IMG/VR virus record: IMGVR_UViG_3300032236_001024
Coordinates: 138,142 to 202,141 of that record
DNA length: 64,000 nt
Source: a virus
Lineage: Duplodnaviria; Caudoviricetes
Direction: 5' to 3' (one strand)
In this document: one piece after another, positions 3,534 through 24,228 of the stretch
How positions within the stretch are numbered: the first letter of the stretch is position 1
How the letters are laid out: the number at the start of each line of letters is the position of its first letter
Notes under the pieces: generated by a model
Databases searched by the model: none
Told to the model about the DNA's origin: nothing
Seen by the model: the letters and a program-made list of their open reading frames with translations, nothing else
Position numbers and translations under genes: made by a program

Positions 3534-4325
3534 TTAGGCATAAAATTTCTTGGTGGCTCTAGCTTCAAATAACCTAGTACTAGTTACTGATGAAATATCT
3601 TTGATATTAAATGCATTTGTTTCTTTTTCAGAGCACACCCACATTTCATCTTTATATCTAATAGATGCATGTCTGAACCATTCATGCCAATGATCTTTTT
3701 GTAAATCAAACCACCATTGATCTGTAATAGGATCAGGCAATTTTTTCACATGAGATGATTTAGTCCACCAAAAATTTCCACTATAATGAGGCTCAGGCTC
3801 AGTCATATAATTTGTTCCTGCAACGTCAAAATTACTGTCTAGTGAATTTATACATTGCTTCCATTCATCAATGACTCCCCATACAAGATATTCTTTCCAA
3901 TAATAATAATTTATAAAACAATCAAAATTATAAGTTTTCAAATATCTTTCAAATGATGTAATTCCTTTTGAATGATTGTAAAGAAAATATGCATCTTCTT
4001 TACATGCATGATCATATAAAAGTTTTATTGTAGTATTTTCATTAACTTGTGGAGGAAATGAATGAGCATCATTCAGTGACAATAAATTATTATCATTCCC
4101 CATAGGATTATCATATGCTGTGAACTCATACTTATTCGAAAGAGTTTTAGCTAATCCATATGCTAATCTGATATTATCTATGTTGCCGATTACTATTAGA
4201 TGAATTTTTTCTAACTCATCTAATAGTCCAGAGTCTTCCATTTTTTTATAATTATCTAAAAGAAATGAAGACCATGCAGCAACATCATCTGTCAGATATA
4301 GATGATAGTACGCATATTTTTTCAC
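3534..4325 (-). CDS. hypothetical protein of glycan-cluster type
   Basis: YNHSKG...HYSGNFWWTKSSHV motif; coupled to the sugar methyltransferase genes. Confidence 0.55.
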   Translation of the reverse strand: MKKYAYYHLYLTDDVAAWSSFLLDNYKKMEDSGLLDELEKIHLIVIGNIDNIRLAYGLAKTLSNKYEFTAYDNPMGNDNNLLSLNDAHSFPPQVNENTTIKLLYDHACKEDAYFLYNHSKGITSFERYLKTYNFDCFINYYYWKEYLVWGVIDEWKQCINSLDSNFDVAGTNYMTEPEPHYSGNFWWTKSSHVKKLPDPITDQWWFDLQKDHWHEWFRHASIRYKDEMWVCSEKETNAFNIKDISSVTSTRLFEARATKKFYA

Positions 4326-8794: not shown

Positions 8795-9511
8795 TTAAAG
8801 ACTGATTAAACCATGACCAAAAAATTTAGTTTCTTTAGTTCCAAATCTGCTTTCATTCATTTGCTTATAATAATATCCATGCCAACTCAACTTACAAAAA
8901 TACATCTTATTATTTCCAACAGCAAATGGAATTAATGTAGGATATGAAAGCATATACTTACATACGCCTTCAACAACACTCATCCACCAATGATTAGTAA
9001 TATCATCAATGATGACAACACCTTCATTGTGAATTAAATCACTAGCAATCTTTAAATCGTTGATTGTATGCTCTACTGTATGACCACCATCAACGGACAT
9101 GAAACGAAGAGAACCAGCTGGAATAGTTTTTCTCATAATATCTTTGGAATCTGTAGAATCTTCTTCAAGCAAGATAATATTATTTCCCTTATGCCTATCA
9201 TACTTGATGATATTATCAGCGAACATATCCTTTCTTCCTTGACCAGAATTATCAATGTTCAAGTGTTGAAGATCAAATACATCTACAGCATATGACTTAT
9301 ATTTTTCTTCGATTGCTTGATTTAAGAGAAGGAAAAGTTTTCCATGATGAATACCAATTTCACATGCGCCGCCTTCTTTGTTTAGCGGCAAACTATCAAA
9401 ATGGTCTACAATTTCTGCCACTCTTTCGTGACACCATCCCTCAACATTATTAAATCCATTATTCACATAATTTTCAATATACTTATTATTAAAATTCATA
9501 ATATACCTCAC
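8795..9511 (-). CDS. class I SAM-dependent methyltransferase
   Basis: CEIGIHHGK, FMSVDGGHT, GVVIIDD. Confidence 0.8.
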   Translation of the reverse strand: MRYIMNFNNKYIENYVNNGFNNVEGWCHERVAEIVDHFDSLPLNKEGGACEIGIHHGKLFLLLNQAIEEKYKSYAVDVFDLQHLNIDNSGQGRKDMFADNIIKYDRHKGNNIILLEEDSTDSKDIMRKTIPAGSLRFMSVDGGHTVEHTINDLKIASDLIHNEGVVIIDDITNHWWMSVVEGVCKYMLSYPTLIPFAVGNNKMYFCKLSWHGYYYKQMNESRFGTKETKFFGHGLISL

Positions 9512-11773: not shown

Positions 11774-12412
11774 TTACATTAACTTATCTACAAATTCTAA
11801 AAGCAATTGGTGATGTTCACCTTTATGCCAGAATTTATTTATATACTTATATTGATCTTCATACCAAAATTCTTCACTCTCTGGATGACAACCAATCAAT
11901 CCTATATTACCCTGAATGATTGCCATTGGCTCATCATTAGAATATTTGGCTATAGTATCATAATATCCAGACCCTGTAAAGGTGCAACCATCATAAAAGA
12001 ACATTTTTTGTTTCTGACCTAGCCATTCTATATCAGCAACAGTTCCGTAACTTCGTTTTATGTCAGATGTTGGACGCTTAATATATTGTACTGCGTCTAC
12101 ATCTTTAAGGAGATCAAAATATCTAGACCCAGCCCAATAAGCACCCATACAAATACCCACATACCTGCCGCCTCCATCAACAAACGATGCAATTTTGTTA
12201 GCTTTAGTACGTGTAAAAAAATCGAAATAGGAATCAGAATCACCAATCCCACCAGGAAAAAGAATCCCATCAGACTCATTTAAAACCTCGTCCAGATCAT
12301 CATTAATAGTAAATATTTTAATTTCATATTTTGGTGATAAAGATTTTATCATTCCATCACAACATTGTCTGGAACATTCAGGATGATGCTGAAACAAAGC
12401 TATTCTTTTCAT
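11774..12412 (-). CDS. BPL_N / class I glutamine amidotransferase-like protein
   Basis: FPGG, YVGICMGAY nucleophile elbow, GCHPE. Confidence 0.75.
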   Translation of the reverse strand: MKRIALFQHHPECSRQCCDGMIKSLSPKYEIKIFTINDDLDEVLNESDGILFPGGIGDSDSYFDFFTRTKANKIASFVDGGGRYVGICMGAYWAGSRYFDLLKDVDAVQYIKRPTSDIKRSYGTVADIEWLGQKQKMFFYDGCTFTGSGYYDTIAKYSNDEPMAIIQGNIGLIGCHPESEEFWYEDQYKYINKFWHKGEHHQLLLEFVDKLM

Positions 12413-12450: not shown

Positions 12451-12536
12451 TGGTGGGAAGAGATGGATTCGAACCAACTCACCTATAAGGAACGGTTTTA
12501 CAGACCGTCGCATCTCTCCAACTATGCCGCCTTCCC
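12451..12536 (-). tRNA. tRNA-Tyr(GUA)
   Basis: ACGGT-CT-GTA-AA-ACCGT, long variable arm, CCA. Confidence 0.95.
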
Positions 12537-12542
12537 ATAATA

Positions 12543-12618
12543 TGGTGCTGCCAGAGAGATTCGAACTCCCGACAACCTGATTACTAATCAGGTGCTCTAC
12601 CAACTGAGCTATGGCAGC
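12543..12618 (-). tRNA. tRNA-Thr(AGU), rare A34 anticodon
   Basis: GCTGCCA/TGGCAGC acceptor (G1-C72, C2-G71), CCTGA-TT-AGT-AA-TCAGG, CCA. Confidence 0.92.
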
Positions 12619-12769
12619 ATTTTAGTGCAAAAAGAATGAAAGAAATGTAAGTACGAAAATAGGCATCCAAAACAGGAAAGCTACAATTCTACTCACTTCA
12701 AAAGCAGCTTCTGCTTTTTTTATAAGATTATCTTTATCGTATACAAACAATTTCTTTACTCCTAAATTT

Positions 12770-12846
12770 TGGTGCCCCAAGTTGGATTCGAACCAACAAC
12801 CCTCAGTTTCTAAGACTGATACCTCTACCAATTGGGCTATAAGGGC
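12770..12846 (-). tRNA. tRNA-Leu(UAG) with short variable region
   Basis: TCAGT-CT-TAG-AA-ACTGA, Leu-type D-loop AATTGGTAG, A73, 5-nt variable region, CCA; 77 nt. Confidence 0.88.
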
Positions 12847-12850
12847 ATTA

Positions 12851-13678
12851 TTAGATATTTATACCATACTTTTCAAAGATTGTCAATACCTCTGGATCAA
12901 TAGAATTTCTGTCTGCAGGTAAAAGAACATTGCCTCTGGTATCAGAAAAAACATCCTTACCATTTTTAATATTATCAACAATATTGTTAATATCTCTTAC
13001 TCGTTCACTATTAAATTCTTGATGTGAGTAAGTTATTATTTTATGTTGAATAGTTTCAGGTGATCCCCAGAAACTAAGATGCCAACCTCCACCATATATG
13101 AATGGTATCTGGTGTCCCCAACGACTTTCTCTTATCCATTGAGGACCATTTTGTTTTGCTATTCTATTTGTACAAAGAACAGTTCCAAAACAGTCGTTCT
13201 CTTGCAAATAGTTAAAATTGTAATAAAACATATCTTGTTTGAAGCCAATCATAGGATTGTATTCATAATCGATATGTTGTAATGCCATATCTATTCCATA
13301 CTTGGAAGGAATTTCATCAGCATCACCTATTAATACAAGAGCATCATCTTCAAAAAATTCTAATGCCTTTGCAATATGATTCCTTTGATATTGCTCTACT
13401 GCCCAATATCCTGTATCTCGACTTCCTGGGTCTAGGGCATATTGTCGCAAAGAAAAATCATAATTGTTTTTGTTTATAAAAACTGGATAATAAAATATCT
13501 TGTCAATATAATTTTTATATCTATTGATGTTGTCTAAAAAATTTAACGATTTATCAGCACCATTAAAACTTATATTAGCCTCAACTATAATAAATTTATC
13601 AACTTTATCATATAGATATTCTAATCTACCTTCAAGTATATCATACTCAGTTGAAAACATAAAACAATCAAGTAACAT
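12851..13678 (-). CDS. glycosyltransferase family 17-like
   Basis: DCFMFSTEYDILEGRL, VEQYQRN, GDADEIP, GGWHLSFWG. Confidence 0.85.
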   Translation of the reverse strand: MLLDCFMFSTEYDILEGRLEYLYDKVDKFIIVEANISFNGADKSLNFLDNINRYKNYIDKIFYYPVFINKNNYDFSLRQYALDPGSRDTGYWAVEQYQRNHIAKALEFFEDDALVLIGDADEIPSKYGIDMALQHIDYEYNPMIGFKQDMFYYNFNYLQENDCFGTVLCTNRIAKQNGPQWIRESRWGHQIPFIYGGGWHLSFWGSPETIQHKIITYSHQEFNSERVRDINNIVDNIKNGKDVFSDTRGNVLLPADRNSIDPEVLTIFEKYGINI

Positions 13679-15707: not shown

Positions 15708-15785
15708 TGGTGCATCAGGAAGGATTCGAACCTTCAACCTTCGGTTTCGAAGACCGCTGCTCTCATCCAGTTGAGCTACTGATGC
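15708..15785 (-). tRNA. tRNA-Arg(UCG)
   Basis: CGGT-CT-TCG-AA-ACCG, A20 in D-loop, CCA. Confidence 0.9.
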
Positions 15786-15997: not shown

Positions 15998-16075
15998 TGG
16001 AGGGGAAGATGGGAGTCGAACCCACCTAAAAAGGTTTTGCAGACCTTGCCATAACCGCTCTGGACTCACTTCCCC
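15998..16075 (-). tRNA. tRNA-Cys(GCA)
   Basis: AAGGT-CT-GCA-AA-ACCTT, U73, CCA. Confidence 0.9.
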
Positions 16076-16167: not shown

Positions 16168-17598
16168 TTAGTAATCGTAACGCTCATTCATGATAGTCTT
16201 GAGCATGATTGCTTCTGGAGTGAAATCATCCATATCAGCTGCAAGAACTGACTTGACGATTGCAGGAGAGAAACCAGAAACAAGAGCAGCACCACGAGTA
16301 TCATACTTCACAGGTACGTTGTCGTTAGCATTAAGGTTCCAGAAGATGATATTAGGCACCTTATAACCAGCTTCAGTATACTTGCGAGCAATCATTTCCA
16401 TTGCAGAATCATCATGGTGAGTGCACTGATCAAACTGCATATCAGAAAGGATCAACAAAGCTTCAGGCATTTCCTCTTGAGGAACATTACCATTCTTTGC
16501 AACAACAAGGATATTATCCAAAGCCATATGAAGATTGGTGTTCATTTCCCACTTCGAAGTCACCATCTGCTTGATCTTGTCGAGGATGTTGCCACGAAGA
16601 TTAAGCAACTGAGGCTGTGAAGAAAACGTTAGGAACGTATCTTTGAACTTACCTTTGTTCTTGTCAGCAAGATACAGACCCAGTGAGACTGCAACTTCAA
16701 GACAAGTTACAGTAGACTTCGACTGCCAACCACCAGCTTTTGTAGTCATTGATCCAGAAACGTCAACTAGAGGAAGGATGTTAGCATCGCCAATATAGTT
16801 AGGCAAAGCTTCCCACTGAGCAAGGATATGATTCAAATTATGCTGATCATAATGATCATAATGATTAATCATACCCTTCAGCACATCATAAGGATACACT
16901 GCACCAGCGTTAACCTTGACTTCCTTCTTGACTTCAGGATCAGTCGAAACGAGAGCAGCAGTCCATTCCTTATACTTTTCAGTATGACGAGAGAACGCCT
17001 TCTTATAACGACCAGAAGCAACAGAAGGAACATGGTTGAAGTTGATGTTATCCCAATCATTGGCGCACATCTGAGTTTCAACAACCTTAGTCAGTTCAAC
17101 CAGACGTTTACGATAGAACTTAGGAGTCCAACCAAGGTGGTTACGAAGCTTCACAGCTACTTCACCTTGACGAGGCATCCACTTAGCACAGAGACCATTT
17201 GAATCCTCAAGGGCATAACGAATTTGTTCAAACGCATAGTATTCAGCACGAGTGCCAACAAGAACCAACAGATCATCCCAGCGTCCAAGTTCAGGAACCT
17301 TACGCATCATAATCATACAATAGTCCAAATCTTCCTTAGCGAGATCAACAAGGATATCACGAAAAATCTTGCGTTCTCCTGCACCTCCACGAACGTCACG
17401 AGCCCAAAGTGCAACACGAGTTGCAAGATCAAGGTTCTCAACACGAGCAGCAGTCCATGAAGGAATTACATCCTTGCCACGCATAGCACCAATCTTAAAG
17501 AAAAGATCAGTAACTGCGTTGGCAGTGGACTTACGAGCCTTCATACCATTCTGGGTACGAACCTCTTGATTGATTACAGCATTCACGAAGGTATTCAT
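16168..17598 (-). CDS. Ro60/TROVE-like RNA-binding protein with vWA domain (DUF2828-type)
   Basis: LWARDVRGGAGER, GRWDDL, AKWMPR, VDVSGSM (MIDAS), LILSDMQFD, IFWNL, LVSGFSP. Confidence 0.85.
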   Translation of the reverse strand: MNTFVNAVINQEVRTQNGMKARKSTANAVTDLFFKIGAMRGKDVIPSWTAARVENLDLATRVALWARDVRGGAGERKIFRDILVDLAKEDLDYCMIMMRKVPELGRWDDLLVLVGTRAEYYAFEQIRYALEDSNGLCAKWMPRQGEVAVKLRNHLGWTPKFYRKRLVELTKVVETQMCANDWDNINFNHVPSVASGRYKKAFSRHTEKYKEWTAALVSTDPEVKKEVKVNAGAVYPYDVLKGMINHYDHYDQHNLNHILAQWEALPNYIGDANILPLVDVSGSMTTKAGGWQSKSTVTCLEVAVSLGLYLADKNKGKFKDTFLTFSSQPQLLNLRGNILDKIKQMVTSKWEMNTNLHMALDNILVVAKNGNVPQEEMPEALLILSDMQFDQCTHHDDSAMEMIARKYTEAGYKVPNIIFWNLNANDNVPVKYDTRGAALVSGFSPAIVKSVLAADMDDFTPEAIMLKTIMNERYDY

Positions 17599-18161: not shown

Positions 18162-18245
18162 TGGCGGAGGGTAAAGGAATCGAACCATCAACCTTGCGGT
18201 GGCAGAGTTTTCAAGACTCTTTGAGCACCTTGCTCGCTACCCTCC
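18162..18245 (-). tRNA. tRNA-Ser(UGA)
   Basis: AGAGT-CT-TGA-AA-ACTCT, long variable arm, G73, CCA. Confidence 0.92.
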
Positions 18246-19412
18246 AATTATTAATTCAGTGATCATTTCAGCTGTTGCAGGACTTAGCGTCCAACCCAAA
18301 TGACCATGACCTGTATTATACCATACATTATCTATTGTCCTACACTTTCTAACCACAGGAAGCATGTTTGGAGTCATAGGACGCAAACCAGCCCAAGGAT
18401 TAGTGTGTTCTGTAGATATATATGGAAAATTCTTACGCACCCATTTTACTAGTGGATCGATTCTGTCCATTCGAATATCATAGTTAATACCAGCAAGTTC
18501 TGCCGTACCAGCTACTCGAAGTCTAGAACCCAACCTAGATGTTACAATCTTTGCTTCATCATCAAGAAGACTTACCACAGGGGCGTCTTCAATGCCATGA
18601 CCAACATCAAGAGTAATACTATACCCCTTCACAGGGTAAATGTCAATAGGGTCATGCAACTTTTTTGAGAATTCTGCACTATTTACACCAGCACAAAGAA
18701 CAACATGATCATACAAAGAACGTGATTCTTCAGGATCAGCCTTCATACCATACTCAAACTTTACATTGTATTTTGATTTGAGAACTTTTTCCATTTCAAC
18801 ACAGAACTTGTGAATATCGCCATTCATATCAGATGGTGTGAAGGTTCCGCCGATAATGTCCTTAGAATACTGGAGCGAAGGCTCATAGTGCATCACCTGA
18901 TTTTTGGTCAGTATGAAACGTTTGATACCAATTTTTTCATAGACCTCATCACAGCTACGTTTTGCAGCTTCAAAGTACTCTTCGTTTTTATAAAAATGAA
19001 GGATACCTTGCTTAGTTAGATTGAAGTTGATCTTTTCCTTTTCTGCAATCTCAAGATAATGTTTTCTTGATTCAAGTCCCATTTGTGCGGTAGCAATCGT
19101 TCTCTCATTCGCATCACCAGTGAGGCTATGATAAAGAAATTTGCTGATCCACTTGTATTTTGAAATCGATGGAGTTGGATTAATCAACAAAGGCGCATCC
19201 TTCTTGATCATCCATTTCATTCCCTTGATGACATTGGGAACTGTAGTCCATACATCACTGTTGCTAACTGAAAGCTGACCACCATTTGCATATGAGGTTT
19301 TCATAGCTGGGTAGTTCTCTTCGTCAATTACAGTAACATCAACTCCACGCCTAGCTAAACTATATGCAGTTGTTATTCCTGTAATACCAGCACCAATAAC
19401 AAGAATTTTCAT
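18237..19412 (-). CDS. dadA: D-amino acid dehydrogenase-like FAD oxidoreductase
   Basis: VIGAGITG, TSYANGGQLS, YPVKGYSIT, LRVAGTAE, WAGLRPMTP, NTGHGHLGWT. Confidence 0.85.
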   Translation of the reverse strand: MKILVIGAGITGITTAYSLARRGVDVTVIDEENYPAMKTSYANGGQLSVSNSDVWTTVPNVIKGMKWMIKKDAPLLINPTPSISKYKWISKFLYHSLTGDANERTIATAQMGLESRKHYLEIAEKEKINFNLTKQGILHFYKNEEYFEAAKRSCDEVYEKIGIKRFILTKNQVMHYEPSLQYSKDIIGGTFTPSDMNGDIHKFCVEMEKVLKSKYNVKFEYGMKADPEESRSLYDHVVLCAGVNSAEFSKKLHDPIDIYPVKGYSITLDVGHGIEDAPVVSLLDDEAKIVTSRLGSRLRVAGTAELAGINYDIRMDRIDPLVKWVRKNFPYISTEHTNPWAGLRPMTPNMLPVVRKCRTIDNVWYNTGHGHLGWTLSPATAEMITELIIGG

Positions 19413-24154: not shown

Positions 24155-24228
24155 TGGTGCCCCCACACAGAATCGAACTGCGAATTGCTCATTACAAGTG
24201 AGCTGTTATACCATTTAACTATAGGGGC
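24155..24228 (-). tRNA. tRNA-Thr(UGU)
   Basis: GCTCA-CT-TGT-AA-TGAGC, CCA. Confidence 0.95.

Follow-up and report, generated by a model that had tools for sequence, protein, structure and literature searches.

Eukaryotic tRNA-Thr(AGU) is edited to IGU by ADAT2/3. In bacteria, Thr tRNAs with an encoded A at the wobble position (A34) are found in Mollicutes and Lactobacillales. The Mycoplasma capricolum Thr(AGU) is unmodified (Andachi 1987), and in vitro it decodes ACU, ACC, and ACG (Andachi 1987; Inagaki 1995), according to the summary of that work given in PMC11066159. Thr(AGU) of Oenococcus oeni is unmodified as well, despite the presence of TadA (PMC8072771). Among phages, tRNA sets of the T4 and T5 type offset codon usage or neutralize tRNA-targeting immunity (PMC6409571; PMC12409363); T4 and T5 themselves carry Thr(UGU), not AGU. 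Several cultured Streptomyces phages (Vash, Lilbooboo, and the Immanuel3/HaugeAnator group) do encode Thr(AGU), and the Vash record annotates its gene with "codon recognized: ACU."

The gene described here resembles each of these systems in part. As in the T4 and T5 sets, it lies within a tRNA region of a T4-like phage, in this case one of 21 genes, and the tRNAs match A- and U-ending codons. T5 variants differ at a nuclease cleavage site, whereas in the phage Thr(AGU) it is the wobble base that differs, and the cleavage motif is intact. The Streptomyces phages are small siphoviruses of high-GC hosts with one to few tRNAs, and their tRNA bodies are unrelated to the one studied here. The phage shares with M. 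capricolum, as the latter is described in secondary accounts, an encoded AGU tRNA alongside Thr(UGU), the lack of Thr(GGU), an AT-rich genome, and the dominance of ACU and ACA. However, the Mollicute tRNA is part of a minimal cellular set covering the whole codon box, whereas that of the phage is an add-on to the set of its host. Lactobacillales (O. oeni, Leuconostoc, and Pediococcus) also have an A34 Thr tRNA, but theirs is chromosomal and distant in sequence. The bacterial copies, including those of Mollicutes (loop CUAGUAA) and Lactobacillales, carry C32, and their identity to the phage tRNA is below 80%; a 76-nt tree is too short to resolve descent. At 11 Leuconostoc loci, Thr(AGU) adjoins Leu(UAG), as it does in the phage and its relatives, which may be a coincidence because the tRNA sequences are distant. 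The eukaryotic tRNA has the same anticodon at the gene level, but the phage genome encodes no ADAT-like enzyme, the host is bacterial, and inosine is not expected.

A Thr(AGU) tRNA gene in a T4-like phage

The phage record comprises 202,141 bp with terminal repeats, has a G+C content of 35.7%, and encodes 21 tRNAs and a tmRNA. The window, meaning the whole stretch of 64,000 nucleotides that we analyzed, is its final 64 kb, in which ARAGORN called 18 tRNA genes, all on the minus strand. A Pfam Gp23 match (E = 3.5e-146) marks the phage as T4-like. Its capsid protein is closest to that of Stenotrophomonas phage DLP6 (75% identity) and approximately 66% identical to its counterparts in phiM12, Melnitz, Cr30, and HTVC008M. 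A megablast search returned no near-identical cultured phage.

The Thr(AGU) gene is located at 12543-12618 on the minus strand and is 76 nt long, with CCA encoded. ARAGORN called it as tRNA-Thr with the anticodon agt, and Rfam RF00005 matched it over model positions 1-71 with 73.1 bits (gathering score, 29), the top score among the 18 tRNA matches in the window. The minimum-free-energy fold is a cloverleaf (z = -3.6), and none of 200 shuffled sequences folded equally well. Its stems are 7, 4, 5, and 5 bp in length. The acceptor stem (GCUGCCA/UGGCAGC) begins with G1-C72, C2-G71, and U3-A70, and A73 precedes the CCA. The anticodon stem (CCUGA/UCAGG) closes a 7-nt loop of U32, U33, A34, G35, U36, A37, and A38. 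By reading of the sequence, the nucleotides engaged in tertiary contacts are canonical (U8, A14, G15-C48, G18G19, G46, T54-A58, and C56). The original prediction had described a cloverleaf with the loop TT-AGT-AA and the pairs G1-C72 and C2-G71, and the gene call, the Rfam score, the fold, and the sequence reading all confirm it.

The identity set recognized by E. coli ThrRS consists of G1-C72, C2-G71, G35, and U36. The phage tRNA has all of these elements and is accordingly expected to be charged with threonine. A role outside decoding, whether as a decoy, as a precursor of regulatory fragments, or as a ligand of a Ro60-like/Y-RNA system, is very improbable, because the molecule has an unobstructed CCA acceptor end, a complete identity set, and an anticodon loop of the canonical seven bases, and because it lies in a row of ordinary tRNAs, even though the genome does encode a Ro60-like protein (Pfam DUF2828/DUF7788 match at 16168-17598). 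Just outside the Ro60-like/Y-RNA-like region, Rfam also reports a tRNA match of 38.9 bits at 16001-16075 (minus strand), to which no ARAGORN call corresponds.

Organization of the tRNA region

Thr(AGU) stands between two other ARAGORN-called genes on the minus strand, Leu(UAG) upstream at 12770-12846 and Tyr(GUA) 6 nt downstream at 12451-12536. The adjacency of Leu(UAG) and Thr(AGU) is kept in five related contigs (L001, L006, L012, L417, and L418), and the position of Tyr(GUA) is shared with L417 and L418. Directly upstream of Leu(UAG), a sigma-70-like promoter match at 12847-12876 on the minus strand (TTGAAA, an 18-nt spacer, and AATAAT; 10/12) could mark where a Leu-Thr-Tyr transcript begins; the number of such matches around the tRNA region is not above that in shuffled sequences.

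The spacer between Leu(UAG) and Thr(AGU) holds a 42-codon open reading frame (ORF) at 12622-12750 (minus strand) that has the ribosome-binding site AGGAG, encodes a product hydrophobic in its C-terminal half, and stops 3 nt ahead of the Thr(AGU) gene. L417 has a homologue at about 3640-3790 (plus strand) with the common motif KAE-AFEV ... LFWMP, and the stop codon of this small ORF falls within the 5' end of the L417 Thr tRNA. Because it is conserved in L417, we consider the ORF to be part of the Leu-Thr tRNA unit.

The partner isoacceptor, Thr(UGU), had also been predicted and was found at 24155-24228 on the minus strand (74 nt; ARAGORN, an Rfam score of 65.8 bits, and alignment). Its body differs from that of Thr(AGU), with the D arm GUUA/UAAC, and relatives bear AGU on a body of this type. 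Across the entire phage genome, the only Thr anticodons are agt and tgt, and Thr(GGU) is absent.

Arg(UCG), at 15708-15785 (minus strand), takes the place of the usual bacterial Arg(ACG), so that the phage has U34 in an Arg tRNA where bacteria have A34/I34, and A34 in a Thr tRNA where bacteria have G34. CGA accounts for only 5% of its Arg codons, and Arg anticodons in the viral sample are acg in 72 cases versus tcg in 28. An FAD-dependent oxidoreductase at 18237-19412 (minus strand; Pfam DAO, E = 6e-59) is flanked by tRNA genes, and an MnmC-like, U34-modifying role for this protein would fit the many U34 tRNAs. Before the window, at record positions 137375-137466 (minus strand), lies a 92-nt gene called as tRNA-Ile(tat) that has its anticodon at position 31 and recurs in L001 at 9185-9276; possibly the tRNA is interrupted or extended. 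Four relatives (L407 at 1399, L410 at 2847, L415 at 2490, and L437 at 3907) carry, between their His and Tyr tRNAs, an amber-reading tRNA with a CUA anticodon, labeled "Pyl" by ARAGORN, which is absent from the phage studied here.

The AGU anticodon is conserved in related phages

A strict search of viral contigs, with positions 34-35 left free in the pattern, yielded one further contig, L001, from a separate sample. Its tRNA is also AGU and is 97% identical to that of the window, from which it differs by a compensatory change of C5-G68 to U-A. An identical anticodon arm, A34 included, is present in 19 IMG/VR contigs, 15 of which were called Thr(agt), and a pattern that joins the common D arm to YUAGUAA occurs in at least 120. 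When 33 homologues were aligned, 98.6% of the cells paired and 13 of the 21 pairs showed compensatory change. None of 500 shuffles was comparable, and slid registers also fell well short of the true pairing. G1-C72 and C2-G71 are invariant in these homologues, even though neither pair was selected for by the pattern; the invariance of the D arm and the loop is uninformative because the pattern fixed both.

The 30 bodies closest to the window tRNA, down to 84% identity, are all AGU and precede the first UGU. In a tree of 214 distinct Thr tRNAs, computed with position 34 masked, separating AGU from the rest took 23 changes, whereas shuffled labels took 64 (never fewer than 54); 76-nt sequences give a weak tree, and its AGU rows had been collected by an AGU pattern. 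AGU is thus clustered on the tree but with about 23 changes, indicating that the anticodon is largely inherited and yet has switched repeatedly. A single origin of the phage AGU tRNAs was rejected on the basis of these changes, within the limits of a weak 76-nt tree, and of at least three body types.

Relatives were also retrieved without regard to the anticodon, by way of the neighboring GATase-like protein (window positions 11774-12412). A Thr tRNA was present at 13 of the 80 loci obtained, with AGU at 9, UGU at 9, and GGU at none. L417 and L418, in which the neighboring protein is 72% identical, have the same order as the window, Leu(UAG)-Thr(AGU)-Tyr(GUA)-gene-...-Val(UAC). Their AGU tRNA has a different, 74-nt body with D and T arms like those of the window's own Thr(UGU), and in L001 both the AGU and the UGU isoacceptor have bodies of the 76-nt type. 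The two anticodons are therefore kept, one gene for each, while the bodies exchange, which suggests that selection acts directly on the anticodon pair. Among 84 viral tRNA arrays with AGU, UGU was also present in 53 and GGU in none.

Conservation of AGU in independent contigs and in syntenic relatives bears directly on whether A34 is genuine. In principle, A34 could be an assembly or sequencing error, or it could have arisen lately by neutral mutation from UGU or GGU in a tRNA gene that is decaying; AGU and UGU are one base apart, and the changes on the tree show that switches between anticodons do occur. However, A34 is repeated in independent contigs from many samples, and a local assembly error is ruled out because independent assemblies share it. 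The stems co-vary, the gene scores best of the tRNAs in the window, AGU clusters on the tree beyond chance, and the AGU and UGU pair is kept even where bodies have been exchanged. Error or decay as the source of A34 is thereby effectively refuted.

A34 Thr tRNAs are rare in cells and recur in phages

The pattern of D arm and YUAGUAA matched 44 stretches in 185,579 bacterial and archaeal species, each represented by one genome. The matches, most of them from Lactobacillales and Mollicutes, fall into three groups: Leuconostoc, Pediococcus, and other Lactobacillaceae; Mesoplasma, Spiroplasma, Williamsoniiplasma, and Portiera; and short contigs of metagenome-assembled genomes (MAGs), at least four of which (L149, L152, L166, and L167) have phage-like tRNA arrays. 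The MAG contigs L149, L166, and L172, with similar tRNAs, look like mis-binned phage pieces with tRNA arrays. The statement that A34 is rare in bacteria therefore holds for this survey and agrees with PMC11066159 and PMC8072771.

Among viral loops that share the D arm, sampled blind to position 34, the wobble base was U in 64, C in 13, A in 3, and G in 1. In 436 viral loci with 3,161 tRNAs, four-codon boxes other than that of Thr rely almost entirely on U34 tRNAs, plus Gly(GCC). A34 is sporadic in these loci outside Thr: Ser aga (8), Ser act (5), Ile aat (4), Ala agc (2), Leu aag (2), and Gly acc (1). Three viral calls of "Tyr(ata)" look like mis-registered CAU loops.

BLAST searches of cultured phages with the full tRNA or the second body type as the query returned mostly Thr tRNAs with UGU or CGU, and the AGU genes of Streptomyces phages surfaced only when the anticodon arm was the query. 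A literature search for phage Thr(AGU) or A34 found no paper discussing such genes, and anticodons are not covered in a 2019 survey of viral tRNA genes. The phage-wide Thr(AGU) pattern appears to be undescribed in the literature searched.

A34 is probably unmodified

The Thr(AGU) loop, U33-A34-G35-U36, fails the determinants of TadA, which are U33-A34-C35-G36 or at least an ANG anticodon. On an orthogonal tRNA in E. coli, editing was partial and confined to ANG anticodons, leaving the AGU variant unedited; the AGU tRNA discriminated between U3 and C3 at approximately 10:1 (PMC11066159). No TadA-like or dCMP-deaminase-like gene was found in the 202-kb phage genome, in which neither PF14437 nor PF00383 gave a match at E ≤ 1 and the zinc-deaminase motif HxE...PCxxC was absent from all six frames. 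A phage-encoded editing enzyme was rejected on these grounds. Given a loop outside the TadA determinants, no phage deaminase, and unmodified bacterial precedents, an unmodified A34 is the better-supported inference.

For the alternative, in which a relaxed host TadA or an unrecognized phage enzyme converts A34 to inosine and the resulting IGU reads ACU, ACC, and ACA, several points can be made. A34 is the base that would be deaminated, the presence of Arg(ACG) in some relatives means that their hosts have TadA, and TadA has broadened to Leu(AAG) in Lactobacillales (PMC13249217, PMC8072771). Nonetheless, we regard inosine as unlikely. The phage has no deaminase of the CDA fold, and the loop presents G35-U36 where TadA substrates present C35-G36. 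E. coli TadA edits ANG anticodons only (PMC11066159), and Thr(AGU) was unmodified in both bacteria examined (PMC8072771 for one; for the other, Andachi 1987 as cited in PMC11066159). In addition, I34 would add little, because UGU already serves ACA and ACC makes up 7% of Thr codons.

Thr(AGU) matches codon demand, but the match is not Thr-specific

Codons were counted in our own ORF calls (203 ORFs, 92% of the genome). The phage uses ACT for 47% of its Thr codons, ACA for 41%, ACC for 7%, and ACG for 5%. Thr makes up 7.5% of all residues and 10.4% of those in the fiber region at 50-100 kb, and ACT is the eighth most used codon. The bias is stronger in structural genes: the 45 Thr codons of the capsid gene comprise 32 ACT (71%), 10 ACA, 2 ACC, and 1 ACG, and two fiber ORFs of 3,099 and 2,930 amino acids contain 317 Thr codons (65% ACT) and 319 Thr codons (59% ACT), respectively.

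AGU had been called redundant beside UGU, but this holds only in part. Each anticodon is the exact complement of a different codon, UGU of ACA and AGU of ACU, and the two jointly give a Watson-Crick match to 88% of the Thr codons. Thr is the sole four-codon box for which the phage has two different anticodons. The benefit of Thr(AGU) may still be small, because a UGU tRNA with a cmo5U-type modification could already read ACU.

We also compared codon usage across viral loci. Median ACT usage was 0.40 in loci with AGU versus 0.30 in other tRNA-bearing loci. When loci were matched for GC content, AGU carriers had an ACT usage of 0.41 versus 0.34, and NNT usage in the other four-codon boxes was 0.42 versus 0.37. 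The Thr-specific ACT excess in this matched set was not significant (P = 0.06, in a sample of related loci for which P values overstate independence), and Thr content did not differ between AGU carriers and other viral loci. Because the NNT excess extends to other boxes, the association of AGU is with a general preference for U-ending codons rather than with Thr. A Thr-specific codon link was therefore not established under the GC-matched control. The original suggestion that the tRNA is matched to ACU-rich phage codons thus stands for this phage, in its overall usage as in its capsid and fiber genes, but the GC-matched comparison does not bear it out as a property specific to Thr. Demand alone also leaves unexplained why only Thr has an A34 tRNA: GGU codons (3004) are commoner than ACU codons (2213) and have no dedicated reader, as the phage has neither Gly(ACC) nor Gly(GCC).

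The AriB cleavage motif is intact in Thr(AGU)

The original prediction had offered evasion of anticodon nucleases as a second explanation for A34. PARIS AriB is the one characterized antiphage nuclease known to hit Thr tRNAs, and it recognizes U36-A-A-U-C|A41 together with U16 (PMC12409363). The phage Thr(AGU) carries the full AriB-sensitive sequence, U36-A-A-U-C-A41, as well as U16, which leaves evasion unsupported. Across the Thr(AGU) family, U39 never varies and conservation of both C40 and A41 is at least 90%, so that the cleavage site shows no diversification. The window's Thr(UGU) has G40 in place of C40.

A broader form of the idea is that A34 is retained as a counter-defense, by which the phage escapes, or holds a backup against, factors that disable certain Thr isoacceptors. 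Thr isoacceptors are real targets, and a type VI ADP-ribosyltransferase modifies Thr(GGU) alone (PMC13617354). GGU is present in none of the AGU-bearing phage arrays, and the phage invests in translation rescue through its tmRNA. We nevertheless judge counter-defense to be an unlikely explanation. The tRNA leaves the AriB determinants intact, and AriB cuts between positions 40 and 41, distant from position 34 (PMC12409363). A destroyed UGU tRNA could not be replaced by AGU, because A34 reads ACA poorly, and the ADP-ribosyltransferase specific for Thr(GGU) is an interbacterial weapon (PMC13617354). In a narrower version, which we would hold to be a long shot, the changed wobble base itself hides phage A34 Thr tRNAs from isoacceptor-specific disabling factors, such as the Thr(GGU) ADP-ribosyltransferase or nucleases that cleave Thr(UGU). 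We know of no antiphage system that targets Thr(GGU). If this version were true, it would represent a class of counter-defense that acts through the anticodon itself and not through its surroundings.

Discussion

Taken together, the evidence favors Thr(AGU) being a functional, Thr-accepting decoding supplement whose encoded A34 is most likely unmodified and reads ACU, and we consider this reading likely to be correct. An unmodified A34 would read ACU by Watson-Crick pairing and ACC weakly, and Thr(UGU) would cover ACA and ACG beside it. Both tRNAs would raise the supply of Thr-tRNA for a Thr-rich proteome biased toward ACU and ACA, chiefly for the capsid and the giant fibers. A phage tRNA only supplements the host pool, and no full set is needed, so the phage could afford a one-codon A34 specialist where cells keep a two-codon G34 tRNA. 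Moreover, ACN is a four-codon box, and loose reading by A34 could therefore not miscode.

Few unmodified A34 tRNAs have been tested: that for Thr in Mollicutes, those for Thr and Ser in O. oeni, and the yeast mitochondrial Arg(ACG), whose function is untested. Why cells avoid such tRNAs is still debated. The phage Thr(AGU) family offers natural material for studying what A34 reads in an ordinary bacterial cell and whether it escapes TadA, and it could show whether "add-on" tRNA sets obey other rules than complete cellular sets. For annotation, A-first Thr calls in phages should not be discarded as errors. The Thr(AGU) of this phage is unusual yet explicable, a member of a large phage family in which the A-first anticodon is under selection.
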